A DNA stretch of 64,000 bases from a virus, in IMG/VR virus record IMGVR_UViG_3300025701_000007, positions 1 to 64,000 of that record. One strand, 5' to 3'. The notes beneath the pieces are model-generated. The model saw only the letters and a program-made list of their open reading frames with translations. It was not told the origin of the DNA and ran no database searches. Below are positions 6,784-63,154 of this stretch, piece by piece (position 1 is the stretch's first letter; every line of letters starts with the position of its first letter). The translations under genes were made by a program, and so were the position numbers.

Positions 6784-9700
6784 TGAGTACATTAGAAACG
6801 TTTTTAAAGGACAGGTACCTAAACCTAAAACACGATGATATAGACGCTTTAATAAAGTCTGATGATAACGGTTTTGCTATAAGTATAGTTGAATACACTA
6901 AAAATACTCTACGTAATTATACAGAAGGGTTAAACGAAGAATGTTTATTAAAAAACGATCAGATATATACCTGGTTGGATGGTACTATAAAAGACTACCC
7001 AGTCGGAACTAATTTCAGTAAAAATTTAAGTGCAGCTACACCAAATCATGCCATATTTGCACAAGCTACTGTTGAGGGTTTAAAAAGAGGTAATTTCGAA
7101 AAAAGTGCTCAACTACTAGTAAGTTCATTACACACTAAATCTAACCCAGACGATCTATCTGACAGATGGGTTATAGACGACCTAATAAACACATTCAAAA
7201 AATCGCAAGGTTTAGTCGAATTACCGATAAGTACTGTCCTTAAAATAGGAGCTCTTTACGACTCGTATTATTATAAAGAAAAGGATGGACCAATAAATTT
7301 CAGTACGATAAATGGGTTGTCAACTAAAGAAGGTATTGATCTACTTAACAGTGATGACGTATTATATAAACATTACGGTACTTACGGTTTCAGTGAAAAA
7401 GATCTAGCTATAGTAACATCACCATTCATAAGACCTATAACACCAAAATCTATAGACGATAAAATGTTAAACGGTTTTGAAAATTATAGTAACACCAATA
7501 TAACTAAAAATTATAGAACTAGTTTTTATAATTTCGATAACGGTAGATACGAAAGCATTAGTAATAACATATCCTCACACATACCATTTTCTGGTTACGG
7601 GGTTTTAAATAATTACCTAAACACTATGTCTAAGATATTCTTTAAAGAAGGTCTAGATGGTGGTGAAGTTAACGCAAGTATTAACGATGATAAAATACCA
7701 TACCATATAATAGGTAATTACAACGGTAGACTTAAAACTATAAAAACTTATAATGACCAGCATATAAATCTAATGACTTCGTACAACAGTTACGGTGTAA
7801 ATGTAGAGTTTGAGTTAGAAGATATTGTAGAAGAGTTTAGTGCGTTAACCTCCTCGATCACATTAGATGATGATTTTATATTCACAAACAAATATAGTAA
7901 AGAAAAGATCGAGTTCTTTTTAATCCTATCTAAGATTAAAGTTAACTACCTTAATGGTACATATACCCTACCAGAAGTCTATAATAAGATGAGAGATTTA
8001 TGTGAAATAAATAACTTAGGTGCCAAAGAGAATGACGAATACGAACTACCAGATTTAGTGGCATTATTATTATACTCTATGTACCCACCAGACGGTCCAG
8101 AGCCTAGTGAGGGTTTAAATAGACCTAACAAGAAATATAAAATACTATCTAAATACCTTGTTGATGAAAATTCTTTCATAGGTATATCTACAGAAGAACC
8201 AAGCCCAAATAACCAAGGTTTATCTTTACAAAAAGAGATAATTAAACTGGAGGGTAATTACGTAGAAATTTTTAGGGTTGTATCTAAATTACTTATAGAG
8301 ATATGGTCTAAAGAGTTAGTTAACGATAAGACTAGAAAATTAAATAAATTAGATAAAAAAGGTACTTTTGTTCTATATCCAGGTGCTGGTGGCGCTATAG
8401 ATCTAGACACACTATTTTCAAAGAAAAGGGTTGATAAAAGGGTTAATTCAAAGAAAAGTGTTAAGAGTGGTATAAGAAGTTTAAAAAAGAGTAACGTTGT
8501 TGCTTCGACTATAACCGAGAACGACTTATCCACATCAGGGTTTATAAGTGTAGAGGCTAAACATTATAAGTTAAACGGACCATCTCCATGGTACGATAAA
8601 ACTTATATTAATGATATACTAATGTATCAAAACGAGTCTTTCTATACTAGATATGAAGAAATTGTTGACGCAATAAATAGACCGAGTACAGAACTCGATA
8701 AAATTAAATTTTTCCAACGCAACCCTTCAGAGGACGATAACGATTTTAGTATTTTAGACAACACGTTAGATTATCTAGGTAAATTTGAGGTAGAATACTT
8801 CAAACCACAATCATACCCATCTAATGCTACAACAATAAACTATTTAGATAGATACGATGACGTACATTTAATTGGTAACAAGATAGATATAGCTAACAGT
8901 TCTTTTGATAATAAATTATTAGTATTAAACACACCTAGGTTACTATGGTTTGAACACCCTAACAACAGACCATCAATAGGTGGTGTTGAAGAAAACAGAC
9001 CATCACTAGGTTATGTTGAAGAAAACAAGTTCTTAAAAAGTGATGGTGTTAATTTTATGCGAGGGTTGTACGACATCAAAGAAAGGGTACACAACTCTTT
9101 TAATATGGTTGGTTTAGAATCTAAAGAAATAGAGGATTTAACTAACAACACGATATTACACACTGGATACTATTTTAACGGTAGTCTCAAAGACTTTACC
9201 TTCAAAGACTACCCAGTCGGAAAAGGGTTATACAATTCTTATCAAAGAATTGTTAACAATCCTTATGATTGGTCAAATCCCGCAGACATAGACACTTATA
9301 GTAATGATTCGGTTAAAGCATATGACACTTATTCAGCCAAATCTTTAATCGATATATTCGATGTGGATAAACTAGAAGATTTTAGGTTATTGTACAAACA
9401 ATTTAGTGGTGATGACACCAGTGAGTATTTTACTAAAACTTTCAATACATTTAACTTCAAAAGTTTGGTAAGACATTTAAACACTGTTGGTTATAGCGAT
9501 ATAAGCGAAAATTTAACTTTAAATGGTAGGAGTTTCAGTAGGGACGAGATATCAGCATTACTTTGCGGGTACACGGGTCACTTCATAGAATTTGGTTCTA
9601 GAAACGGCTTAAGTAGATTAATAAATACTAGCTTAACGATAGCACAGGAGAGTAAGGCTAAGTTCGTTATAGACGAGTTCATGAATGATAAGATAACCGT

Positions 9701-11831
9701 AAATAATTATTCTACAGCAGGACCTCTAAGTATATCTAATACAGAAAACAACCCCAACGGCATAAGAATAAATACCTTCCCGTTTAATCCTATAATAGCA
9801 TACTCTTACGCTACCGATGATGACAAGAGTAAAACATACGAAGGTATAAGTGAAGTTACTGGTGATCCTTTATTATTTAGGACAATATTATTCGGCGACC
9901 AAAAAATTAGACCTTATAACCCATCAGCACTTGATGGTTTAGATGATCTGATAGATAAGTATGTGTATTTCGCGGACACCTCAAACTTAGGTTACTATGA
10001 TGTAAGTATAAACCCAAAAATTGGTAATAAAATAGTTATAACAGAATTAACTAAAAACTTTTTTAAGAATTTAAATATAGAATTAAATCTAGGTAATTTA
10101 CAGTTATTAATATCTTATTTAAGAGCTTACATAAATTACACACTAAAGTTTAGTCCTACTGAACTTAATAGATTATTCCCTAAAATAAATACTGGTTGGG
10201 ATTCTACAGATAGGGCAGCCAGTATTGCTGACAAATTAGGTGATAAGTTCAAACTAGAAGGTCTGGGTGACTACTTATATGTCGGTGGTAACGTTAATAG
10301 CCCACAAAAATCTATTTTCACTAACGGAAACATTAAGACAGCAGAAATAATAGATGGAGAGTTTACTGTTTTAGAATATGAAGCCGAATATATGGTTAAC
10401 GATTTAGAAGACCTTAATATGGTTGAAAAATTTAACGAATGGGTTAAGGATTTTAACAAAAGAACTGTAGATAGAACCATAGAGGTTATAGATAAATCAG
10501 TAGAAAGGTTAAGAGATGTCTCAAGTAATTATGATTCAGGTAGTGCAGATATAGGTAACGCTAAAAATGAGATTAGCTCAGAAGTAGATTCGGAGGTAAA
10601 ATCCAGTACCTACTACAGAATAAAAACCCTGTACGATAAAAACGTATCTTTTAAAAATATAGATTTAACCAGAACTACTTTACTAACTGAAGACTTAGCT
10701 AATGTAGATCCTAACGATGTATTAAACACACCTTTATTCTATAACTTCAATGTACAAAACTCCGACTTCTGTGACGAAGATTCTTCTGGGTCCTATAAAG
10801 AAGATAGGGTGGGTAAAGATAATGTACTTAAAGATTTATATAGTTACTCAAGTATTTTAGATAGAGGTAACAATGATTACGGTAGTAAAGTCCTGGTAGA
10901 TTTAATAGCTTTATCCGCATCTTTAGGTAAGGACATTAATAGTAATCAAGATGTTAAAAAAGCTACGGACAGGACTATGTGGAGTGTGTTATCGCAATTA
11001 GCCTCAGAACACGAATTTCTATTACTACCATTAACCTCTTATATAAACTTAAGTAGTAGCACCAGAAACGAACAATCTCCCTATGAGTTAGCTCACGACA
11101 TGTTCGGTGTTTTCAAAGAATTAACGATGTGGGACTCGAACCCCGCATTCGTATTCCAATTAGGATCTCTAACATCAGATATATCTGGTAAGGGTAAGAA
11201 AAAGAAAGGTTTTAACCAAGCATTCGACCCAAGTAATACATTTTGTTTGGATTTAGACCCTAATGAATTAGATGTTGACGGCAAAGCCAGGCTATTAAAC
11301 GAAGATACACCAGCTGATATAAAGAACTCAGAAATCACATCATTTATAGTAGACTTCGCTAACACTAACCAAAGTATGTTTAAGAACATACAAATATCAA
11401 CAGAAGAGTTCACAAATACAGAAGAGAGTATTAAAACAGTCGTATCTTTATCAGATAAAAATTCTGGGGTAGTACTATCCTCAGGTAAACTATTTAGCGC
11501 CATGGAAAGTAGATCATACTCCTGTACAGTAACTAGTTTAGGTAACGCTACAATACAACCTTTATCATATTTCTACCTAAGAAACGTACCATTATTTTAT
11601 GGTACCTACTGGATAACAAACGTTAGTCATAAAATAACGGGTAATAATATGGTAACAACATTTAAAGGTGTTAGACAACCAGTAGCTAAAAAACCCACAG
11701 CCAATAAAATAGTACTAAATAAATTATTGACTAGCGCGAAAAATAGATCACAACAAACAGGTTTTACTGATAGAAACGATAGGACGCCTATACAAAGTAG
11801 TGGTATAATTTACTCAGATAGAGGTATATAA
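6783..11831 (+). CDS. Baseplate hub-like protein with gp27/gpD-type C-terminal module
   Basis: C-terminal CTVTSLGNATIQP...FYGTYWITNVSHKITGNNMVTTFKG matches the G-x-Y-x-I-x-x-V-x-H hub pattern; TAATG stop/start overlap with the upstream gene. Confidence 0.6.
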   Translation: MSTLETFLKDRYLNLKHDDIDALIKSDDNGFAISIVEYTKNTLRNYTEGLNEECLLKNDQIYTWLDGTIKDYPVGTNFSKNLSAATPNHAIFAQATVEGLKRGNFEKSAQLLVSSLHTKSNPDDLSDRWVIDDLINTFKKSQGLVELPISTVLKIGALYDSYYYKEKDGPINFSTINGLSTKEGIDLLNSDDVLYKHYGTYGFSEKDLAIVTSPFIRPITPKSIDDKMLNGFENYSNTNITKNYRTSFYNFDNGRYESISNNISSHIPFSGYGVLNNYLNTMSKIFFKEGLDGGEVNASINDDKIPYHIIGNYNGRLKTIKTYNDQHINLMTSYNSYGVNVEFELEDIVEEFSALTSSITLDDDFIFTNKYSKEKIEFFLILSKIKVNYLNGTYTLPEVYNKMRDLCEINNLGAKENDEYELPDLVALLLYSMYPPDGPEPSEGLNRPNKKYKILSKYLVDENSFIGISTEEPSPNNQGLSLQKEIIKLEGNYVEIFRVVSKLLIEIWSKELVNDKTRKLNKLDKKGTFVLYPGAGGAIDLDTLFSKKRVDKRVNSKKSVKSGIRSLKKSNVVASTITENDLSTSGFISVEAKHYKLNGPSPWYDKTYINDILMYQNESFYTRYEEIVDAINRPSTELDKIKFFQRNPSEDDNDFSILDNTLDYLGKFEVEYFKPQSYPSNATTINYLDRYDDVHLIGNKIDIANSSFDNKLLVLNTPRLLWFEHPNNRPSIGGVEENRPSLGYVEENKFLKSDGVNFMRGLYDIKERVHNSFNMVGLESKEIEDLTNNTILHTGYYFNGSLKDFTFKDYPVGKGLYNSYQRIVNNPYDWSNPADIDTYSNDSVKAYDTYSAKSLIDIFDVDKLEDFRLLYKQFSGDDTSEYFTKTFNTFNFKSLVRHLNTVGYSDISENLTLNGRSFSRDEISALLCGYTGHFIEFGSRNGLSRLINTSLTIAQESKAKFVIDEFMNDKITVNNYSTAGPLSISNTENNPNGIRINTFPFNPIIAYSYATDDDKSKTYEGISEVTGDPLLFRTILFGDQKIRPYNPSALDGLDDLIDKYVYFADTSNLGYYDVSINPKIGNKIVITELTKNFFKNLNIELNLGNLQLLISYLRAYINYTLKFSPTELNRLFPKINTGWDSTDRAASIADKLGDKFKLEGLGDYLYVGGNVNSPQKSIFTNGNIKTAEIIDGEFTVLEYEAEYMVNDLEDLNMVEKFNEWVKDFNKRTVDRTIEVIDKSVERLRDVSSNYDSGSADIGNAKNEISSEVDSEVKSSTYYRIKTLYDKNVSFKNIDLTRTTLLTEDLANVDPNDVLNTPLFYNFNVQNSDFCDEDSSGSYKEDRVGKDNVLKDLYSYSSILDRGNNDYGSKVLVDLIALSASLGKDINSNQDVKKATDRTMWSVLSQLASEHEFLLLPLTSYINLSSSTRNEQSPYELAHDMFGVFKELTMWDSNPAFVFQLGSLTSDISGKGKKKKGFNQAFDPSNTFCLDLDPNELDVDGKARLLNEDTPADIKNSEITSFIVDFANTNQSMFKNIQISTEEFTNTEESIKTVVSLSDKNSGVVLSSGKLFSAMESRSYSCTVTSLGNATIQPLSYFYLRNVPLFYGTYWITNVSHKITGNNMVTTFKGVRQPVAKKPTANKIVLNKLLTSAKNRSQQTGFTDRNDRTPIQSSGIIYSDRGI
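8964..9023 (+). repeat. In-frame 30-bp tandem duplication (NRPSIGGVEE / NRPSLGYVEE)
   Basis: aacagaccatcaataggtggtgttgaagaa followed by aacagaccatcactaggttatgttgaagaa, 27/30 identical. Confidence 0.9.
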
Positions 11832-14503: not shown

Positions 14504-14511
14504 TATTTATA
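14504..14511 (+). promoter_or_regulatory. Putative late promoter TATTTATA
   Basis: Intergenic, 14 nt before the ATG at 14526; the same octamer recurs before several other structural operons. Confidence 0.6.
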
Positions 14512-54878: not shown

Positions 54879-55511
54879 ATGGATAAGATGATAAATTTAA
54901 TCGTATTTAAAATAAGGTATTATCTGTACAATTTATTCGTCAGAATTTTCACCAAAAAATCCAGGAAATATATAATGTTTTTTGTGGGGACCTATCCAGA
55001 TAATTTTAAACATGGTTTAAAACCTATACTAGACAACGATCATCAGATAAAATGGGTTTTTGGCCCAGCATCTATAATACTGATATTCAACTCAAAGGAG
55101 AAGATAAAATATTTGGATAAGTTCTTTAAACGCATGTATTCCGAATATGCAGAATCCTTTTTTCTTTTTGACGTCACAAAAGGCAGATACTCCAAACATG
55201 TCGTCGAGGAATATTATAAACACCTATACTCAGAAGGACCTAAGCAACATAATGACTTAACACTAAATAAGGTACAGTACTTCATAGATATGGTGTCTAA
55301 AGCTAGGGAACAATATATAGACATTTTAAATGAAGAAATAAAATTCGCTAAAGATGTTGAGAACGAGGAAGATGTTGGTGAGGGTAAAAATTTTGATGTA
55401 GATATGAACTTAATAGATGAGATTCTAGATAAGATAATAGAACACGGGTACGACACCCTAACCAATGAAGAAAAAATAATATTAAAAAAATATAGATCTA
55501 ATAATGAATAA
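54879..55511 (+). CDS. Hypothetical protein with C-terminal DUF6576-like motif
   Basis: IDEILDKIIEHGYDTLTNEEKIILKKY at the C-terminus. Confidence 0.55.
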   Translation: MDKMINLIVFKIRYYLYNLFVRIFTKKSRKYIMFFVGTYPDNFKHGLKPILDNDHQIKWVFGPASIILIFNSKEKIKYLDKFFKRMYSEYAESFFLFDVTKGRYSKHVVEEYYKHLYSEGPKQHNDLTLNKVQYFIDMVSKAREQYIDILNEEIKFAKDVENEEDVGEGKNFDVDMNLIDEILDKIIEHGYDTLTNEEKIILKKYRSNNE

Positions 55512-56310
55512 CAAGATAGACACAACACACTGGATTGACCAAAAAGAGATTAGTCATTACCTACACGAAGTAAGAAAACATCAACCCCTAACTAGACTAG
55601 AGGAACACCTACTATTAAAAGAGATTAGAGCTGGTAAACCAGGATCTAAAGAAAAGTTAATATACTCCAACCTAAGGTTCGTAATAAGTATAGCCAAGAA
55701 ATATCAGAACAACGGTTTGAGTCTAAGCGACTTAATATCAGAAGGTAATTTAGGTTTATTAAAAGCGGCTGAGAGATTTAACTACGACCAGGATGAGGTT
55801 AGGTTCTTATCATACGCTGTATGGTGGGTCAAACAAACTATAATACAATCATTAAACGATAACTCTAGAGTAATAAGATTACCTATAAACGTTATAAATG
55901 ATGTTAGGAAAACGAATAGAGAAATGACTCTAAACTTGACTGAAGAGAAACAAGCTATGGGTAACCATAAATACTCGAACTTACCATCTGTCGATAATTT
56001 AGATAATAAATACGATGAGGATGGGTTAAGTATTTATGATAAAACAGAGGACGTAACCTCATTAAGACCAGACGATATATATGACAATGAACAAGCCAAT
56101 TTAAATCACGCATTAAATAAAGTTTTATTAGAACTTAGTGAGACCGAAAGAATGGTTATAAGTAGGTATTTTGGGTTAGATTGTGATGAGTCGACCCTAC
56201 AAGATATATCGGTTGATTTAAACATAACAAAAGAAAGAGTTAGACAGATAAAAGAGAAGGCTATAAAGAAGATAAGGTTCTATTCGAGTAGTATTTTCGA
56301 ATTATTGTAA
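55504..56310 (+). CDS. Sigma-70 family RNA polymerase sigma factor (RpoD-like, no region 1.1)
   Basis: Region 1.2 YLHEV...LT..EE; region 2 NLRFVISIAKKY...DLISEGNLGLLKAAERF...SYAVWW; region 4 TKERVRQIKEKA. Confidence 0.93.
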   Translation: MNNKIDTTHWIDQKEISHYLHEVRKHQPLTRLEEHLLLKEIRAGKPGSKEKLIYSNLRFVISIAKKYQNNGLSLSDLISEGNLGLLKAAERFNYDQDEVRFLSYAVWWVKQTIIQSLNDNSRVIRLPINVINDVRKTNREMTLNLTEEKQAMGNHKYSNLPSVDNLDNKYDEDGLSIYDKTEDVTSLRPDDIYDNEQANLNHALNKVLLELSETERMVISRYFGLDCDESTLQDISVDLNITKERVRQIKEKAIKKIRFYSSSIFELL

Positions 56311-56328: not shown

Positions 56329-56336
56329 TATTTATA
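56329..56336 (+). promoter_or_regulatory. Putative late promoter TATTTATA
   Basis: Within a 30-nt gap, only 4 nt before the ATG at 56341. Confidence 0.5.
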
Positions 56337-56340
56337 AGAT

Positions 56341-56706
56341 ATGGAAAAGATAAAAAAATTTTTTAGTAAATACGGTTTAATGGCTTTCATAGGATTATTA
56401 TTTATAATGATGATAAGAGGTTGTAGTAAAAACGGTAAAATAAATAAATTAGAGAAAGAGAATACTACCTTAGTTCACACTATTAATGATTTAACTGAAA
56501 CTGTTGATAGTGTATCTAATTCTAGATTAACTGATGAACAGATTAAATTGATTGAGTTAAAGGGTAAATCGGAGGTATTGGATTTTGTTAACAACGAAAT
56601 TTCTAAATACGATAGAAATAAAAGTATGATGGAATTACAATTCGAAGTGATAGGTAGGAAAAAGAATATTGATTCTAAAATAAAAAGTATAGAAAAAAAT
56701 AGGTAA
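56341..56706 (+). CDS. Membrane-anchored coiled-coil protein (spanin-like or lipoprotein)
   Basis: Basic N-terminus, hydrophobic helix ending IRGC, then a coiled coil. Confidence 0.5.
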   Translation: MEKIKKFFSKYGLMAFIGLLFIMMIRGCSKNGKINKLEKENTTLVHTINDLTETVDSVSNSRLTDEQIKLIELKGKSEVLDFVNNEISKYDRNKSMMELQFEVIGRKKNIDSKIKSIEKNR

Positions 56707-56707
56707 A

Positions 56708-58219
56708 ATGTTAAAATTTGAGCACACTAATAGTATTAATGAGGCTTTGACGCTATCAAAAGTCGTTAAAGATCAATTCAACTCTAATAGAGTCGTGATA
56801 GTATCCGACTTAAACGATTCGAACAAAGCCACGTCCGAAGTAATATCTGTAAAGGATATATTAAAAAAACATGGTTTCATGTGGGATGGTAAGAATAAAC
56901 AATGGTGGCTTAATGATAAATTTAAACCGATTGAACAAGTTATAGATATAGCTAAAAAAGCTGTAGCTGAAGCTAATGATAAATTAAACCAATCTAACGA
57001 GGTTAATGAAATTATATCTAAATTAGAGGATATAAAAGAGTTCATTAAGACTGCACCAGTAGCGGAAGTATCTGACGTTACTAAAGACGATCTTACTGAA
57101 AAGTTACAAGGATTCATAACCGAATTAGCTGAAGAAGTTGACAGTGTTAGGTTGACATCGAAAGTAAAAGATTACTTTGACTTTTTAAGTAAATTCCCTA
57201 ATTATTCGTTTACCAATCAGATACTAATCTACATACAAAATGAAAACGCCACTAAAGTGAACTCCAAAACTGGTTGGTCCAAGTTAGGTTTAAAACCTAA
57301 AGAAGGGGCTAACCAAATATTGATATGGAGACCAACACTTAAACCACCAACAAAAGGTGTGAAAGAAGCTAGGAAAAAAGATTTCATGACTAAGTTAAAA
57401 GGTCCTTTCAATGACGAAAAGAAAGAGCAATTAGCTAAACTATTGAAACAACCAGTGGCATCTATGCCGTTTGTTTTATACCCAGTTTATGATACAACGG
57501 ACGTTGTAAAAGAAGATGGGTCTGAATACTCAGAACCAGAAAAAGTAGATTTAGAATGGCAAGACAGTACTGAAAATGAGGTTGCTGATAAGATATTTGA
57601 AGCTATGGTTAAGGTTTACGATGATTACGGTATTGACTTTGCTATAGAAGACTCTAAGAATGGAGAAGGAGGTTACTCAGCTGGTGGTAAAATAAGGATC
57701 TCAACCAGTACAACAGGTATAAGTAGAGCCTCTGTAGCTATACATGAATTTGCTCACGAGCTAATGCATCAAAGTTTCCTAAAAACTAAAGCCGAAAGTG
57801 GTAAAGATAATAATAAACTAGGTGATAAATCACAACATATATTAGATGCATATGTTGGTAGAGATATATCTGAGGTATTAGAGCTGCAAGCCGAGTCGGT
57901 TGCTTACGTGGTACTTAAGTCTTTTGATGTACCAGGTTTGAAGTACGCTGTAAATTACATAGCGCTATGGAAAGGTACTAAAGATAGTATAATAGGTAAT
58001 CTAGATGTGATAACTACCACAGCCAATCTTGTTATCAAATCTCTAAATAAACATATCGATAGTATGAACGAGATTGAATCAGAATCTGATTTACACGGTG
58101 ATACCGTGACGATGTCAAGTGTGGCTAAATTACTTAAAGCCCCTATAAATAAATCTATAGATGAGATATTTGGTGATATAAACGAAAATAAAAGTATATT
58201 CAAAAACATTATAAAGTGA
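56708..58219 (+). CDS. ArdC-like ssDNA-binding/antirestriction protein with zincin metallopeptidase domain
   Basis: FLSKFPNYSFTNQILI..Q...AT.V.....W..LG..PKEGA..I.IWRP and VYDTTDV (ArdC-N); HEFAHE...ELQAESVAY...YIALW (metallopeptidase); also a KKHGFMWDGKNKQWW module. Confidence 0.8.
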   Translation: MLKFEHTNSINEALTLSKVVKDQFNSNRVVIVSDLNDSNKATSEVISVKDILKKHGFMWDGKNKQWWLNDKFKPIEQVIDIAKKAVAEANDKLNQSNEVNEIISKLEDIKEFIKTAPVAEVSDVTKDDLTEKLQGFITELAEEVDSVRLTSKVKDYFDFLSKFPNYSFTNQILIYIQNENATKVNSKTGWSKLGLKPKEGANQILIWRPTLKPPTKGVKEARKKDFMTKLKGPFNDEKKEQLAKLLKQPVASMPFVLYPVYDTTDVVKEDGSEYSEPEKVDLEWQDSTENEVADKIFEAMVKVYDDYGIDFAIEDSKNGEGGYSAGGKIRISTSTTGISRASVAIHEFAHELMHQSFLKTKAESGKDNNKLGDKSQHILDAYVGRDISEVLELQAESVAYVVLKSFDVPGLKYAVNYIALWKGTKDSIIGNLDVITTTANLVIKSLNKHIDSMNEIESESDLHGDTVTMSSVAKLLKAPINKSIDEIFGDINENKSIFKNIIK

Positions 58220-59136
58220 TGGGTGAAAAAGTGAGTAAGAATTTTATAATAGGTACATTCGTTACCCTATATATAATGGTATCGATTATATCAACTATAC
58301 ACGTAGTAGACTTCTTTCAATTATCCAACCCAAAGTGGTTAGCGATAACATTAGCAATAGCCTTTGAGATAGGTGCGGCCGCTTCTTTAGCATCAATAAT
58401 AGCACTAAAGAAAATGAACAAAAGTATAGTATGGGCATTATTCTTCATACTAACTGCTATGCAAGCCATGGGTAATACCTACTACGCATATAAGAATCTA
58501 GAAGATTTTCAGATGTGGTCAGAACTATTTGGTTTGGTTGATTACGAACCTATTTTCCAAAAAAGAGTTATGTCGATAGTTAGTGGTGCTATATTACCAT
58601 TAGTAGCGTTAGGTTTTATTAAATCGTTAGTTGATTATATAAGACCAGAGTCTGAAGCGACTGAATCCGACGTAAAAGAAGAGGTTGCTGAGGAAGTTAC
58701 AAACCAAGAACCTACTAAAGAAGACGATTATTTTGAACCATGGGACAGATATCACAATGAAACAATGGGTCGAGAAGAACCTATAGATGAGTTTTACGAA
58801 CCAATCAACACTGTAGAGTCCAACGAGGAAGATGATTATTGGGATGAAGATCATGCATTAGATATGGTTATGAATGATATGGTATCTGAATTAGACGACC
58901 AAAATCTATCAGATATTATGGACGAAACAATTGACCAAACACATGATTTGGATTGGGTTTATGATTATAATGAAATAGACGAAGAATCTAAAGAAATTGG
59001 GTTTGAATCTGAAGTAGAGGAAGTTGAACCCGAAGTAGAAGAAACTGAACCTGAAGTAGAGGAAGTTGAAACTAAGAAAAAAAATTATAATAAAATTGAT
59101 GATACTATAATGGTCTTTAAAAAAGATGAAAATTAA
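58219..59136 (+). CDS. Four-TM membrane protein with acidic C-terminal tail
   Basis: Four hydrophobic segments in the first ~140 aa, then a D/E-rich region. Start is GTG 58216 or ATG 58219. Confidence 0.7.
   Translation: MGEKVSKNFIIGTFVTLYIMVSIISTIHVVDFFQLSNPKWLAITLAIAFEIGAAASLASIIALKKMNKSIVWALFFILTAMQAMGNTYYAYKNLEDFQMWSELFGLVDYEPIFQKRVMSIVSGAILPLVALGFIKSLVDYIRPESEATESDVKEEVAEEVTNQEPTKEDDYFEPWDRYHNETMGREEPIDEFYEPINTVESNEEDDYWDEDHALDMVMNDMVSELDDQNLSDIMDETIDQTHDLDWVYDYNEIDEESKEIGFESEVEEVEPEVEETEPEVEEVETKKKNYNKIDDTIMVFKKDEN
59011..59070 (+). repeat. 21-bp coding tandem repeat (EVEEVEP-like), about 3 copies
   Basis: gaagtagaggaagttgaaccc / gaagtagaagaaactgaacct / gaagtagaggaagttgaa. Confidence 0.8.
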
Positions 59137-59737
59137 TAACGAACATTATTTTGACGATAAAGATCATGTAACTAAAACTAAAGCGAAGAAAAAACAAATA
59201 GTTTTAACAAATACTGACTGTACTTTCAACGAGTACTTAACTAAGATAAAAACACGTTACAATGGTAAATACACCAGGGTACCGTGTTTTTCTATTTCTA
59301 AAGAAGGTGATGTATACCAACACTACCCAGTAAACTCTTATAACGAACTGATGTCTGAATACGGTATGGAAAAAAACGTTATAGTTGTAGCCATAGAAAA
59401 TCATGGGTGGTTGAAGAAAGATATGTTAACTGGCGAGTTAGTTAATTGGAAGGGTTCACACTACGAGGGTGATTTAGTTGAAAAACCATGGAGAGGTAAA
59501 AAGATATGGTCTACATATAATGATATACAATACACTAAACTTGCAGAATTAATAGACTATTTATGTTTAAAGCACGGTATTGAAAAAGACTTCGTGGGTA
59601 CAAATACTATAATAGATAAACCTAATTACCATAGAGGTATACTTAATAGGAGTAATTATAGTAAGAATTATTACGATTTATCCCCCGCATTCAATTTTAA
59701 AAAACTAAGCGAATTAATAAATGAAAATTATGGATAG
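59126..59737 (+). CDS. N-acetylmuramoyl-L-alanine amidase (Amidase_2)-fold protein, zinc ligands apparently lost
   Basis: QIVLTNT, FSISKEGDVYQ, VVAIEN, YNDIQYTKLAELIDYL and DLSP follow the amidase-2 pattern but lack the His/His/Cys ligands. Confidence 0.65.
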   Translation: MKINNEHYFDDKDHVTKTKAKKKQIVLTNTDCTFNEYLTKIKTRYNGKYTRVPCFSISKEGDVYQHYPVNSYNELMSEYGMEKNVIVVAIENHGWLKKDMLTGELVNWKGSHYEGDLVEKPWRGKKIWSTYNDIQYTKLAELIDYLCLKHGIEKDFVGTNTIIDKPNYHRGILNRSNYSKNYYDLSPAFNFKKLSELINENYG

Positions 59738-60242
59738 GAGTTTTAATCACGACAAAAATTACGATGATATAAAATCGTTAATAGGTAAAATTAGAAGTGT
59801 CACTTTAAACGAAGAAGAGGAGATTGTAAAAACGACCCCAGAAGAGGTTGGTGACAAGTCTGGTGAGAAAATAAAATTTGATTCGATTAACACAATAGGT
59901 TATTTAAGTAAATCAGATGACGTTAATCTAGATATGAATGCTTTAGAAGAATCTGTAGGTGAATTTATTAAATCTAGTGGTTTACTATTATCATACGTAA
60001 ATATAAGAGTTGAAATGGGTAGAATCATATTAACATCAGATGTTATAAAAAACCCTTCACTTGAAATGGTTAAAGAAATAATCATAGATACCAACGAAGA
60101 AGATGTTACTATAGAATTAATATCAGGACCATTGACTTTAAGCGGGGATTTACTAAACTTATTAAAGTTAGTTACTAGAACTTATGACGACCCTCAAATA
60201 GGTAGATCTAATTTGATAAAGGTTAGTCAATCAATTGATTAA
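59730..60242 (+). CDS. Hypothetical protein, possible head-associated (TLNEEEE motif)
   Basis: ORF overlaps the amidase-like gene; start at 59721 or 59730. Confidence 0.6.
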   Translation: MDRSFNHDKNYDDIKSLIGKIRSVTLNEEEEIVKTTPEEVGDKSGEKIKFDSINTIGYLSKSDDVNLDMNALEESVGEFIKSSGLLLSYVNIRVEMGRIILTSDVIKNPSLEMVKEIIIDTNEEDVTIELISGPLTLSGDLLNLLKLVTRTYDDPQIGRSNLIKVSQSID

Positions 60243-60271: not shown

Positions 60272-60279
60272 TATTTATA
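60272..60279 (+). promoter_or_regulatory. Putative late promoter TATTTATA
   Basis: Intergenic, 16 nt before the ATG at 60296. Confidence 0.6.
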
Positions 60280-60295
60280 TTAATAAACACTAACA

Positions 60296-60646
60296 ATGAA
60301 AGTAAAAATAACAGATTCCGAATTAGAAAAATATCTTAAAGAATCATTAATGGAGTTTGAAGGTAAACCATTAGTTAATGAATCTTTAACGGCTACCGAT
60401 AAAAGTGATGTTAAATCTATGATTAAGAAGGAGATAAAAGACTTCCTTGAAATAAATCGTAGCTCTCAATTCGAAACCAGAGTAAAAAACATTGTTAAAG
60501 ATACTTTTAAAGATACGATTAAGTCTGATAGAGACTTAGAGAATAAAATGGTTGAAGTAAGCAGAAATGTTTTAGTTCAACTATACAAGCAATTATGGAC
60601 CAGAAGAGCTTTCTGGGCAAATGATTTGAAAAACGCAGCTAACTAA
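60296..60646 (+). CDS. Small helical protein, putative internal head protein
   Basis: MKVKITDSELEKYLKES...LVNES leader with xxE motifs; follows the TATTTATA motif. Confidence 0.5.
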   Translation: MKVKITDSELEKYLKESLMEFEGKPLVNESLTATDKSDVKSMIKKEIKDFLEINRSSQFETRVKNIVKDTFKDTIKSDRDLENKMVEVSRNVLVQLYKQLWTRRAFWANDLKNAAN

Positions 60647-63096
60647 TGAAAAAAGAAGATTTATTGAATAAAATTAAAGAGACTATTAAACTTAATGAAT
60701 CTGTTTCAGTTGCATCAACATTAGGGGTACCAGGTAGTCCTACATACGGTGGGTTCATAGGACCTTTAAGTATGATAAACAAAAAGAAATTAAATAGTAG
60801 ATTATTTTACACTTGGGCCGACAAGAATGTTAAAAATTCTGACGGTGTGGGTACTGTAGTTGAACCACCACAAGGTTACGTTAGTGAACACATATACAAT
60901 GCTGAAGGTGGTATGGTTACCGAAGGTGATTTAATTGAATGGTTTGGTGGTGATTTAAAACAAGGTACTGCCTTTAATGGTGGTAAGATTGTTAGTATCG
61001 AACCAAAATGTATGGCATTCCCATATTGCTCACAAGGTGCCACGGATAAACCAATAAAACTTATAGGTGAAACCAAAGAAGATATGTGTGATAGTTGCTA
61101 TGATTATTGTAAACACATAGGTGATCAAAGCGACAATACACCAGAGCATATAGCTAAATTAATTAGAGAAAATTATTTAGGTGAAGCAAAAGAATTAGGT
61201 TTAGATGAAGAATCTAAAGAAAATGTAAAAGAATTAGATGAGTCGATAGAACTCAAAGACACTTTAATAGAAGAGTCAAAAGATATCAATAATAATATAT
61301 TAGAAAATACCGATAAAATGGAGAATGTAAAATTAACGGCTGAAATGGCATCTAAATGCATGGAAAGCATAATGGAAAATAAAGAGTTGGCCGAATGTAT
61401 GTATGAAACTCTTATAAAAGAAGGGTTCTTACCAGAAACCATAGAAGAAGGTGAAACTTACGAAAGTGAGTGTAAAAACATGATGGAGGATTCTGATATA
61501 TGTTTAGAGATGGTTAAATCTTGTATGACTAGTGTTGACGAGAGTGAGTGTACTAATGAGATGCAGGGTTATATAACAGAATACTGTAAGGGTACATCTG
61601 AAGGACCTATTGAAGATAACGCTAAAGCTGTTATTAATGAAAAGGGTGAAGATAGATATACATTCTTTGGTAACTTAGAGCAAATGAGAAGACAATCTGA
61701 TATATTATTAGCTCTTGACGAATCAAAAATACAAGAGTTATTAGATAACGGGCATGATTGGGCTCAAGACCACATCGCTACATCTAAAGAGAGTATGGAC
61801 CAGGTATTTGATTTCATCATGAATGAAATGGAAACTCCAGAGACTACTGAACCAGAAATGGATAAAATGGATCTTGAAGAATTATCACCATCGGATATAG
61901 TAAACTCTATGAGAGAGGAAAATGAGGAAGTTAGTGTTAAATCAGATTCGCAGCAATATGAAACTGAATTGAGACAATTTAACCAATTTATGAACACTGT
62001 TGAGGGTAACCTTAATACGGTTGGTAAAATTTTATCACCAGACACTATTAAAGATATGTTCAACAACTACTTTAGAGGTTTTGAGTCTAGCAAAGAAGCT
62101 AACGCTGATGAGTTTATAGACTTCATACAAAAAGGTGGTGAAGAGAATCACTTAGAGTATTATGATAGAATTTTCTCTAAGGGACCTAACCAAAGTATCT
62201 TAATGTTATTAACTTCTCCAGCAAAAAGAGGTTTCTTAGATAAGAGTGGTTTAGATAGAGAAGATAAATTATTAGATGCATTAGACTCATTAGATAGCCT
62301 AGAATCTAGAATCTCAAAGAAGCGAAATTTCATATCCGATTACATGGATAGAAAAGATAGTAAAGAGATGGATAAATCTGATACTGATACTGATTTTTCT
62401 GATGAAAAAGAACCTTCTATGAAAGATCTAAAGAATATCGAAAAAATGGGTAACCTAGATATCGATAGCGATGAAGACTTTCTATCAGAAGCTGAGTTAG
62501 CGAAGTTTACACCTATAAAAGGTAAATTCGTTGATTCTGAAAATGATACTAATTCTAAAAAAGAAAATACTGAAGGTATTGAAGACGCTGAAGATTCTCA
62601 AGAATCTACAGAAGAGAAAGTAGATGATTTAAAAAATCAGAAATTTTCACCTAACATGGAAACCGAATCTGAAAAAGAGGCTAAAGAATCATCTTTAGGT
62701 TATAAAAACGCTTTGAATTTAGATTACGATAACGAACCTAGTGAGGAATACAAAGATAGAGTTGAAATGGAGGTTAAAACTGGACACTCTTTAAAAAGAG
62801 ATGAAAAGACCTTAGGAGCCGAAGCTAACATAGATAATGAAAGTGAGGCTGGTGAAAAAATATGGGACGCATCTAAAGAAAACCAAGAGAACGCTGATAA
62901 AGATTACACTTCTAAACCTGTATCTGTAGAAGACGAGGAAGAAAAAGAGGGTAGTAATAAAATCAATGAGGAATTGGATAAGATGAAGAAAATGTTTTCT
63001 TACGACCAAAGCGTTATCGATGTAGAGAGAAAAACTAGATTAGTTAACGAAAACGATATATTCATTACTAATGTTAGTAAGAAGAAAATGTTATAA
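60646..63096 (+). CDS. Large acidic multi-module protein, putative prohead core/internal polyprotein
   Basis: 816 aa, D/E-rich, Cys-rich segments, many (I/L/V)xE sites, C-terminal INEELDKMKKMFSY helix. Confidence 0.5.
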   Translation: MKKEDLLNKIKETIKLNESVSVASTLGVPGSPTYGGFIGPLSMINKKKLNSRLFYTWADKNVKNSDGVGTVVEPPQGYVSEHIYNAEGGMVTEGDLIEWFGGDLKQGTAFNGGKIVSIEPKCMAFPYCSQGATDKPIKLIGETKEDMCDSCYDYCKHIGDQSDNTPEHIAKLIRENYLGEAKELGLDEESKENVKELDESIELKDTLIEESKDINNNILENTDKMENVKLTAEMASKCMESIMENKELAECMYETLIKEGFLPETIEEGETYESECKNMMEDSDICLEMVKSCMTSVDESECTNEMQGYITEYCKGTSEGPIEDNAKAVINEKGEDRYTFFGNLEQMRRQSDILLALDESKIQELLDNGHDWAQDHIATSKESMDQVFDFIMNEMETPETTEPEMDKMDLEELSPSDIVNSMREENEEVSVKSDSQQYETELRQFNQFMNTVEGNLNTVGKILSPDTIKDMFNNYFRGFESSKEANADEFIDFIQKGGEENHLEYYDRIFSKGPNQSILMLLTSPAKRGFLDKSGLDREDKLLDALDSLDSLESRISKKRNFISDYMDRKDSKEMDKSDTDTDFSDEKEPSMKDLKNIEKMGNLDIDSDEDFLSEAELAKFTPIKGKFVDSENDTNSKKENTEGIEDAEDSQESTEEKVDDLKNQKFSPNMETESEKEAKESSLGYKNALNLDYDNEPSEEYKDRVEMEVKTGHSLKRDEKTLGAEANIDNESEAGEKIWDASKENQENADKDYTSKPVSVEDEEEKEGSNKINEELDKMKKMFSYDQSVIDVERKTRLVNENDIFITNVSKKKML

Positions 63097-63120: not shown

Positions 63121-63154
63121 AAATAAGGACTTCTTACTAAAGAGGTCCTTATTT
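63121..63154. terminator. Hairpin, possible bidirectional terminator
   Basis: aaataaggac (63121-30) pairs with gtccttattt (63145-54), extended by ttct/agag. Confidence 0.65.

Follow-up and report, generated by a model that had tools for sequence, protein, structure and literature searches.

A divergent ArdC-family protein with candidate prohead-protease sites near both termini in an uncultured lineage of T4-like jumbo phages

The locus and its phage lineage

An ArdC-like gene lies at exactly 56708-58219, on the + strand, in a 64,000-nucleotide stretch of viral DNA (positions 1 to 64,000 of the IMG/VR record IMGVR_UViG_3300025701_000007; hereafter the window). Its open reading frame (ORF) runs from ATG to TGA and codes for a protein of 503 residues, 56.5 kDa and isoelectric point (pI) 5.5. 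The N-terminus reads MLKFEHTNSINE-ALTLSK (MLKFEHTNSINEALTLSK), and the ORF call confirms the MLKFEHTNSINE-ALT start given in a preliminary description of the same DNA. We find that the product is a divergent member of the ArdC family and that it carries, near both ends, short motifs fitting a processing consensus derived from the capsid protein of its lineage; it may therefore be cargo of the phage head. The gene is the second of a tightly coupled unit (56341-60242), and its stop overlaps the ATG of the next gene as TGATG. All genes of the window lie on the + strand, at a GC content of ~32%. The features are collected in Table 1.

The source assembly is a single 75.7-kb contig, ~25% complete according to CheckV, and the window makes up about a quarter of a T4-like jumbo phage of ~300 kb. 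It contains an M23 tail lysin, SSB, a UvsX-like recombinase, DnaB and ribonucleotide reductase, as well as a gp6-like baseplate wedge, several giant proteins, a primase, SbcD, SbcC and a sigma-70-family factor. In the part of the window covered by profile scans, no gene for a head protein was identified; the last 11.7 kb of the contig, beyond the window, were read as ORF translations.

A 154-kb contig from IMG/VR (G001) runs collinear with the window, the starts of orthologous genes being offset by 77.9-79.3 kb; its ortholog of the ArdC-like protein is 79% identical, and the genes around it follow each other in the same order. The T4-type head module of G001 is complete, comprising large terminase, portal, protease, acidic scaffold and capsid protein. 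The protease belongs to Peptidase_S77/gp21 (E 6e-20) and the capsid protein to the Gp23 family (E 4e-73). Head genes are found too in G004, a complete 317-kb genome with a 34%-identical homolog (Peptidase_S77/gp21 at E 2e-23). The lineage is uncultured, since the phage collection offers no capsid protein closer than 39-41% identity, and the two best of these belong to a metagenome record of a huge phage and to a Microcystis phage. It is also abundant: the capsid gene has at least 599 matches in IMG/VR.

Table 1. Features of the ArdC-like gene, its surroundings and the capsid gene of the collinear relative. Positions are those of the window, except in the last row, which refers to G001.
Feature	Position	Strand	Description
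Phage sigma-70-family factor, immediately upstream of the operon	55504..56310	+	Sigma70_r2 1.5e-16, Sigma70_r4 1.7e-12, phrog_351 3e-52
Exact TATTTATA	56329-56336	+	4 nt before ATG of the 121-residue gene; candidate late-gene promoter element
121-residue basic protein, first gene of the operon	56341..56706	+	stop 1 nt before ATG of the ArdC-like gene; pI 9.4; hydrophobic segment at residues 7-29
ArdC-like protein	56708..58219	+	ORF call, homologs, alignment, fold model
Leader, residues 1-12 (MLKFEHTNSINE)	56708..56743	+	predicted disordered, pLDDT ~29 (all below 50); ends in candidate site I-N-E, then A
Small basic alpha/beta domain, residues 13-72	56744..56923	+	signature K..LK..GF.WD....W; pI 9.5; weakly DUF5710-like
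Acidic helical linker or hairpin, residues 73-160	56924..57187	+	helices 75-93, 98-115, 126-142 and 146-160; pI 4.5
Predicted ArdC-N type domain binding single-stranded DNA, residues ~161-275	57188..57532	+	YSFTNQILIYIQ...W; pI 9.6; S167, N170 and W190 invariant
Gluzincin metallopeptidase domain (MPTase / M78-like), residues ~290-456	57575..58075	+	HEFAHELMH at nt 57743-57769
C-terminal tail, residues 457-503	58076..58216	+	low-confidence model; candidate I-N-E site, then amphipathic helix NKSIFKNIIK
Membrane protein	58219..59136	+	3-4 hydrophobic segments and acidic tail; orthologs begin MGEK.../MKEN...
203-residue Amidase_2-like protein	59126..59737	+	weak PF01510 match, E 8.5e-5, 23.3 bits against 26-bit cut-off
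173-residue acidic protein (p173), last gene of the operon	59721..60242	+	conserved N-proximal (L/I)xE: TLNE, then E, at ~residue 31
Second TATTTATA element, 116-residue gene (p116) and 816-residue acidic protein (p816)	60272..63096	+	element at 60272-60279
Capsid protein of G001 (L019; further loci L043-L122)	9325-10902		hypervariable stretch between two strongly conserved blocks

Family, fold and domain anatomy

Direct scans of the protein with Pfam, PHROG and NCBIfam return nothing above threshold. The best direct Pfam match is to ArdcN, at residues 156-215 with E 0.015 and 16.0 bits against a threshold of 22.6. A phmmer search against PDB sequences gives no match, and a profile of the family finds ArdC (6i89) among PDB sequences at a non-significant E of 0.3, though with the correct domain aligned. 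Because the direct ArdcN match is sub-threshold, it is transitive homology, together with the fold, that carries the assignment to ArdC.

A large protein collection holds 61 homologs, the first ~25 of which are full-length orthologs of 57-80% identity; homologs from E 1e-45 down to 1e-8 bear PF08401 (25-45 bits). Scanned one by one against Pfam, 20 of the 39 aligned members match ArdcN (best E 6.6e-12) and 11 match Peptidase_M78, with minor matches to MPTase-PolyVal (five, sub-threshold), DUF6782 (three), DUF5710 (two) and LPD25 (one). An ArdC-N profile match, whose absence would by the preliminary description have refuted its reading, is thus present in the homologs but falls short in the protein itself, a borderline outcome.

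Across the alignment of 39 sequences, H346, E347, H350, H354, E392 and Y417 are invariant, together with S167, N170 and W190. The HEFAH motif, said to be retained in the preliminary description, is indeed found at residues 346-350 (nt 57743-57757). The peptidase residues correspond to H201, E202, H205, E229 and Y255, the metal ligands and catalytic residues of R388 ArdC (PMC7213743), with a spacing from Glu to Tyr of 25 residues compared with 26.

An AlphaFold2 model of the protein has a mean predicted local distance difference test (pLDDT) score of 78.6. Searched with Foldseek against the PDB, its only significant matches are the ArdC structures 6i89 (E 3.4e-5) and 6sna (E 2.4e-4), the former over 299 alignment columns at ~13% identity. 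IrrE (3dti) and Spartan (6mdw) come next, at non-significant E values of 0.14-0.24, and this ranking repeats the order of neighbours published for ArdC itself (PMC7213743). Against viral models Foldseek gave only non-significant matches, to small IrrE/SprT-like peptidases and to polyvalent proteins. That the protein is a divergent ArdC-family member, with an ArdC-N domain followed by an HExxH...E gluzincin, is well supported by transitive homology, fold and catalytic residues, and the preliminary description was right to call it an ArdC homolog.

The same data bear on another reading, in which the protein is a DNA-dependent protease of the Spartan, IrrE or ImmA type and resembles ArdC in fold only, without anti-restriction activity. 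The substrates of such an enzyme would be proteins that are bound to phage DNA or cross-linked with it, or else a regulator resembling a repressor. The IrrE-like Peptidase_M78 is the second commonest Pfam match, IrrE and Spartan follow ArdC in the structural ranking, the neighbouring genes are of recombination and repair types, and the full conservation of the catalytic residues suggests an active peptidase. However, only the ArdC structures match significantly, the protein has a domain of ArdC-N type and the same domain order as ArdC, and neither the ORF list nor the Pfam scan places a cognate XRE-type repressor gene next to it. We regard this reading as unlikely.

In front of the ArdC-like core lies additional sequence. 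The region of homolog P0036 equivalent to the small basic domain matches PF18974 (DUF5710) at E 0.001, below threshold; an ESM Atlas search with the N-terminal 160 residues returned no usable match. The small domain, like the rest of the N-terminal module, is missing from the short, ArdC-length homologs P0058-P0061, and the C-terminal tail from homologs of 394-410 residues (P0038-P0043). The best explanation is that the protein has acquired both an N-terminal module of ~160 residues, made of leader, DUF5710-like domain and helical linker, and a C-terminal tail of 45 residues.

In other proteins, RNase_T, PAP2, primase/Toprim or JAB modules are joined to the ArdC core, in the manner known from polyvalent proteins (PMC5512222). 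In P0044 (659 residues; on contigs up to 289 kb), a PAP2-superfamily phosphatase domain is joined to the N-domain and the ArdC-like core. In P0041, the ArdC-like region is fused to an RNase_T exonuclease (Pfam), and the ArdC-like gene of G004 (G004:C1:113893-116055) adjoins a DEDD-type exonuclease-like gene, identified by eye from its N-terminal motif. These arrangements suggest that an ArdC-like protein and an exonuclease may be functionally linked in a distant subfamily.

Candidate prohead-protease sites

Homologs of the T4 prohead protease gp21 cleave after a Glu that follows a short, lineage-specific motif (PMC9026906, PMC5694885). We gave no weight to the general T4 pattern, (L/I)xE, because ~40% of all proteins carry it within their first 35 residues. 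A stricter consensus can be read from the capsid protein. At the boundary of its propeptide, (M/L)(L/I)-N-E-(S/A) stands at residues 57-61 in every one of 52 distinct orthologs, whose identity goes as low as 53%. A hypervariable stretch of 7-8 residues follows (L/I)NE-(S/A), and then the conserved core ...SFETVVFPIVRRV, at which the Pfam Gp23 model starts. Such a pattern is the one expected of a maturation cleavage site.

The proteins of G001 contain [LIV]NE[SA] 18 times, and shuffled proteins 5.4 +/- 2.4 times. Near the termini, defined as within 65 residues of the N-terminus or 45 of the C-terminus, there are 11 occurrences against 1.7 +/- 1.4, and none of 500 shuffles reaches 11. Sibling motifs with P2 or P1 varied have terminal counts of at most 6 and at most 4; only N with E is in excess. 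Among the carriers near a terminus are the capsid protein, the scaffold (22 residues from the C-terminus), the portal (17 from the C-terminus) and a head-module protein. No recognisable enzyme is found among the G001 proteins with a terminal [LIV]NE[SA].

The ArdC-like protein has INE-A at residues 10-12, in agreement with the capsid consensus and at the junction of the disordered leader and the first strand, which begins at residue 14 of the model. In all eight orthologs from viral contigs, this site is [IV]NE followed by A or S. Their leaders, 11-14 residues long, have an invariant L at position 2 and F, H, Y or V at position 4, and the stretch of residues 5-9 differs among them both in sequence and in length. 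As the preliminary description had observed, there are further MNE and INE motifs towards the C-terminus, namely SMNE at ~residue 458 and INE at residues 491-493 (nt 58178-58186). The latter, 10 residues from the end and followed by N, S, T or A, is kept in 7/8 orthologs.

The products of three consecutive genes downstream, p173, p116 and p816, also have a positionally conserved (L/I/V)xE, 16-31 residues from the N-terminus. It is LVNE-S at residue 29 of p116 (pI 9.1) and KLNE-S at residue 18 of p816, and p173 orthologs carry LNE-S, LQE-S, INE-S or LKE-D. These proteins are candidates for prohead-processed cargo or core proteins, to judge by their sequences. The tail of the ArdC-like protein (INE-NKSIFKNIIK, 58178-58216) resembles the C-terminus of p816 (VNE-NDIFITNVSKKKML, 63040-63093), and the two may share a C-terminal module placed after a cleavage-type site.

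Homologs from Enterococcus phages and faecal phages, which are primase- and JAB-fused polyvalent proteins without the N-domain of the ArdC-like protein, were examined for an N-terminal (I/L)xE-AL. They belong to small phages expected to lack a gp21-type protease, and the comparison is uninformative.

It is possible, though we hold it less likely than not, that the lineage marks otherwise unrelated late proteins for prohead processing with a fixed (L/I)-N-E followed by S or A, and that the ArdC-type protein is one of them, trimmed at both ends and injected along with the genome.

Upstream element and operon

The preliminary description had placed the gene downstream of TATTTATA. An exact copy is present in front of the operon, but it adjoins the preceding 121-residue gene and not the ArdC-like gene directly. 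We rejected an overall enrichment of TATTTATA, of which the window has 15 copies against 21.4 +/- 5.1 expected; only its placement is non-random. Six of the eight plus-strand copies fall within the 1.7 kb of intergenic DNA, and the intergenic copies of the TATTTATA(a)TAAAATA-type element, which stand in gaps before structural and late-type genes, are at 14504, 24381, 41903, 46718, 56329 and 60272.

In G001, 20 copies of TATTTATA lie in the right orientation 3-36 nt upstream of gene starts. The genes behind them include those of the prohead protease, the large terminase, the head module and the giant tail proteins, as well as the first gene of the operon studied here; no replication gene is among them. 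In 7/8 relatives, TATTTATA is found 2-4 nt before the ATG of the orthologous operon. The element has no obvious -35 partner. One copy, that of the operon, stands just downstream of the gene for the phage sigma-70-family factor.

Altogether, it is credible that TATTTATA is a late-gene element, its function as a promoter being deduced from placement, and late expression of the ArdC-like protein is plausible. The late operon of the preliminary description is supported by association, through the element that it shares with structural genes of G001. It is not set apart by a terminator from the replication genes that precede it: our scan found none that is convincing between 49566 and 63121. Read-through from the primase-SbcCD-sigma unit is for this reason possible, and with it earlier transcription.

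The first operon gene encodes a lipoprotein-like product, with a basic N-terminus and a hydrophobic core ending in ...MMIRGC. It has no Pfam or PHROG match, is conserved in the relatives and has orthologs in L001, L005 and L006. For the membrane-protein gene, the ORF list gives a GTG start at 58216; the orthologs point to the ATG at 58219 as the real one. The p116/p816 unit ends in a terminator-like hairpin at 63121-63154.

With such partners, the ArdC-like protein could belong to a lysis or superinfection-exclusion cassette and act at the cell envelope, and its tight coupling to genes for lipoprotein-like, membrane and Amidase_2-like proteins would agree with this. Yet it has no hydrophobic segment or signal peptide, its domains are of types predicted to bind DNA and cleave proteins, and the amidase match of its neighbour is below threshold. 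We consider an envelope role very improbable.

Beyond the window, the contig encodes a 244-residue ORF (G000:C1:69128-69862) with the ClpP-like active-site motifs GLAASMG and MIHQP, read from the translation. It is followed by a 933-residue protein of collagen-like G-x-x repeats, which has its own TATTTATA element.

Proposed packaging or a role in the producing cell

The reading that we prefer, tentatively and at somewhat under an even chance, is that an ArdC-type DNA-binding peptidase is expressed together with the structural genes, processed by the prohead protease and carried along with the DNA. Transcription of the gene, like that of structural genes, would start from a late element of the TATTTATA type, and the trimmed product would enter the next host along with the DNA. 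There, it would bind exposed DNA or act via its peptidase, and blunt restriction or another defence before any phage gene is expressed. Packaging is favoured because an anti-restriction protein made late and left unpackaged would come too late for incoming DNA.

Alternatively, the same ArdC-family protein is not packaged at all and works in the cytoplasm of the producing cell, at a middle-late stage, its terminal (I/V)NE motifs being structural or coincidental. It might then protect single-stranded DNA in the intermediates of recombination-dependent replication or packaging, or degrade a host defence protein or a DNA-bound protein. We rate this almost as highly as packaging. Against it, both termini match a consensus of four residues peculiar to the lineage, which is beyond chance, with ~1e-4 expected per position. 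Moreover, the sites are kept across orthologs beside variable residues, the N-terminal one falls where leader and folded domain meet, and the upstream element is common to structural genes.

Several observations support this alternative or weigh against packaging. The preliminary description had put the gene among head-type rather than early genes, a siting that we reject: the profile scans of the window show replication and repair neighbours, and the genes immediately upstream of the operon encode the primase, a nuclease-like protein, SbcD, SbcC and the sigma-70 factor, with no terminator in between. The operon partners, which are lipoprotein-like, membrane and amidase-like proteins, are of envelope type and not head cargo. 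The operon copy of TATTTATA ends 4 nt before the ATG, awkwardly short for a -10 element. Furthermore, a gp21-protease profile search of the 75.7-kb contig gave no match, and we infer the protease and head genes from the 79%-identical collinear relative, the contig itself containing neither.

The site and its leader raise difficulties as well. The preliminary description had seen a T4-like leader; the lineage does have a gp21-type protease and INE-A fits the capsid consensus, but the leader resembles that of no other candidate cargo. The leaders of the ArdC-like protein, p173, p116 and p816 share only their terminal (L/I/V)xE. The N-terminal site Glu aligns with a Glu of a second N-domain subfamily, within the motif F-x-E-W-L, and in P0044 this segment is internal, after the PAP2 domain; on that account the Glu may have a structural role. 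The protein is also acidic and of 56 kDa, unlike the small basic internal proteins of T4.

Finally, some features of relatives favour this alternative. The homolog of the distant, complete genome G004 is located in an accessory stretch of small ORFs, beside the exonuclease gene, and P0041 is an exonuclease fusion. ArdC of R388 is needed when expressed in the recipient cell, and its peptidase is dispensable for overcoming HsdRMS (PMC7213743). Since the protein acts when made in the recipient and does so without its peptidase, the mechanism of the ArdC family itself is unsettled.

Relation to known systems

The best structural match is ArdC of the IncW plasmids R388 and pSa (6i89, 6sna), with which the phage protein shares the order of the two domains, the metal and catalytic residues and the substrate-stabilising Tyr. 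It differs in its low identity and its sub-threshold direct Pfam and profile-versus-PDB matches, in its N- and C-terminal extensions and in an insertion of ~18 residues between HExxH and the Glu helix. Its gene belongs to a jumbo phage of lytic type and not to the leading region of a plasmid, and the route proposed for it is the capsid in place of conjugation.

Polyvalent proteins occur in phages and conjugative elements, and for those of phages that pair ArdC-N with MPTase, Iyer et al. predicted in 2017 that they are packaged and travel with the DNA (PMC5512222). The present protein has the same pairing, and its relatives are fused to primase/Toprim, JAB/RadC, RNase_T, PAP2 or LPD25. In contrast to the polyvalent proteins, it is short, with two recognisable effector domains and the small DUF5710-like domain. 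For its processing we propose cuts at the termini, made by the prohead protease, instead of interdomain autoproteolysis by MPTase.

T4 offers the closest parallel for the proposed route. Its capsid targeting sequences (CTS), or internal-protein propeptides, are 10-19 residues long, and its internal proteins have leaders that are alike or even identical; Alt undergoes cleavage at either end, and IPI* is an injected anti-restriction protein (PMC9026906). In the 10-residue CTS of IPIII, residues 4 and 7 are key for targeting, and residues 8 and 10 for processing (PMC9026906, PMC5694885). The lineage studied here has a protease of the gp21 family, and the ArdC-like protein a 12-residue leader, within the T4 range, that ends in (I)-x-E. 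The hydrophobic or aromatic position 4 of its orthologs (F, H, Y or V) recalls IPI, IPII and IPIII, the candidate sites at both ends recall Alt, and the proposed anti-restriction role recalls IPI*. It differs from the internal proteins and Alt in the absence of sequence homology, in a leader not shared with other candidate cargo, in its large size and acidic character and in the fixed N at P2. Its packaging, unlike theirs, is a proposal read from sequence features.

A recent preprint reports 102 ArdC genes in 101 genomes of huge phages from many habitats, with conserved key residues (bioRxiv 10.1101/2025.02.27.640493). Our protein belongs to that general phenomenon. Terminal processing sites, an N-terminal add-on and an association with late genes are not described in the passages of the preprint consulted here.

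Implications

ArdC genes in huge phages and the predicted packaging of proteins pairing ArdC-N with MPTase (PMC5512222) are already known. New here are the N-terminal add-on module, the terminal sites that fit a protease consensus derived independently from the capsid protein, and the association with a late-gene element.

ArdC is regarded as a plasmid protein, and its mode of action is unclear. Should the proposal be true, the protein would be the first ArdC to reach its host inside a virion, and nature would have made an equivalent of T4 IPI* from the anti-restriction scaffold of a plasmid. A capsid-loaded phage ArdC would join two strategies, that of the proteins that escort the DNA of conjugative elements and that of the injected internal proteins of T4, and it would give the polyvalent-protein hypothesis a concrete case. 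The rule that (L/I)NE stands before S or A near protein termini, which 52 orthologs of the capsid protein bear out, predicts which proteins form the head cargo of the lineage. For these widespread, uncultured jumbo phages, this sequence rule, a by-product of the analysis, may prove more useful than the gene itself.

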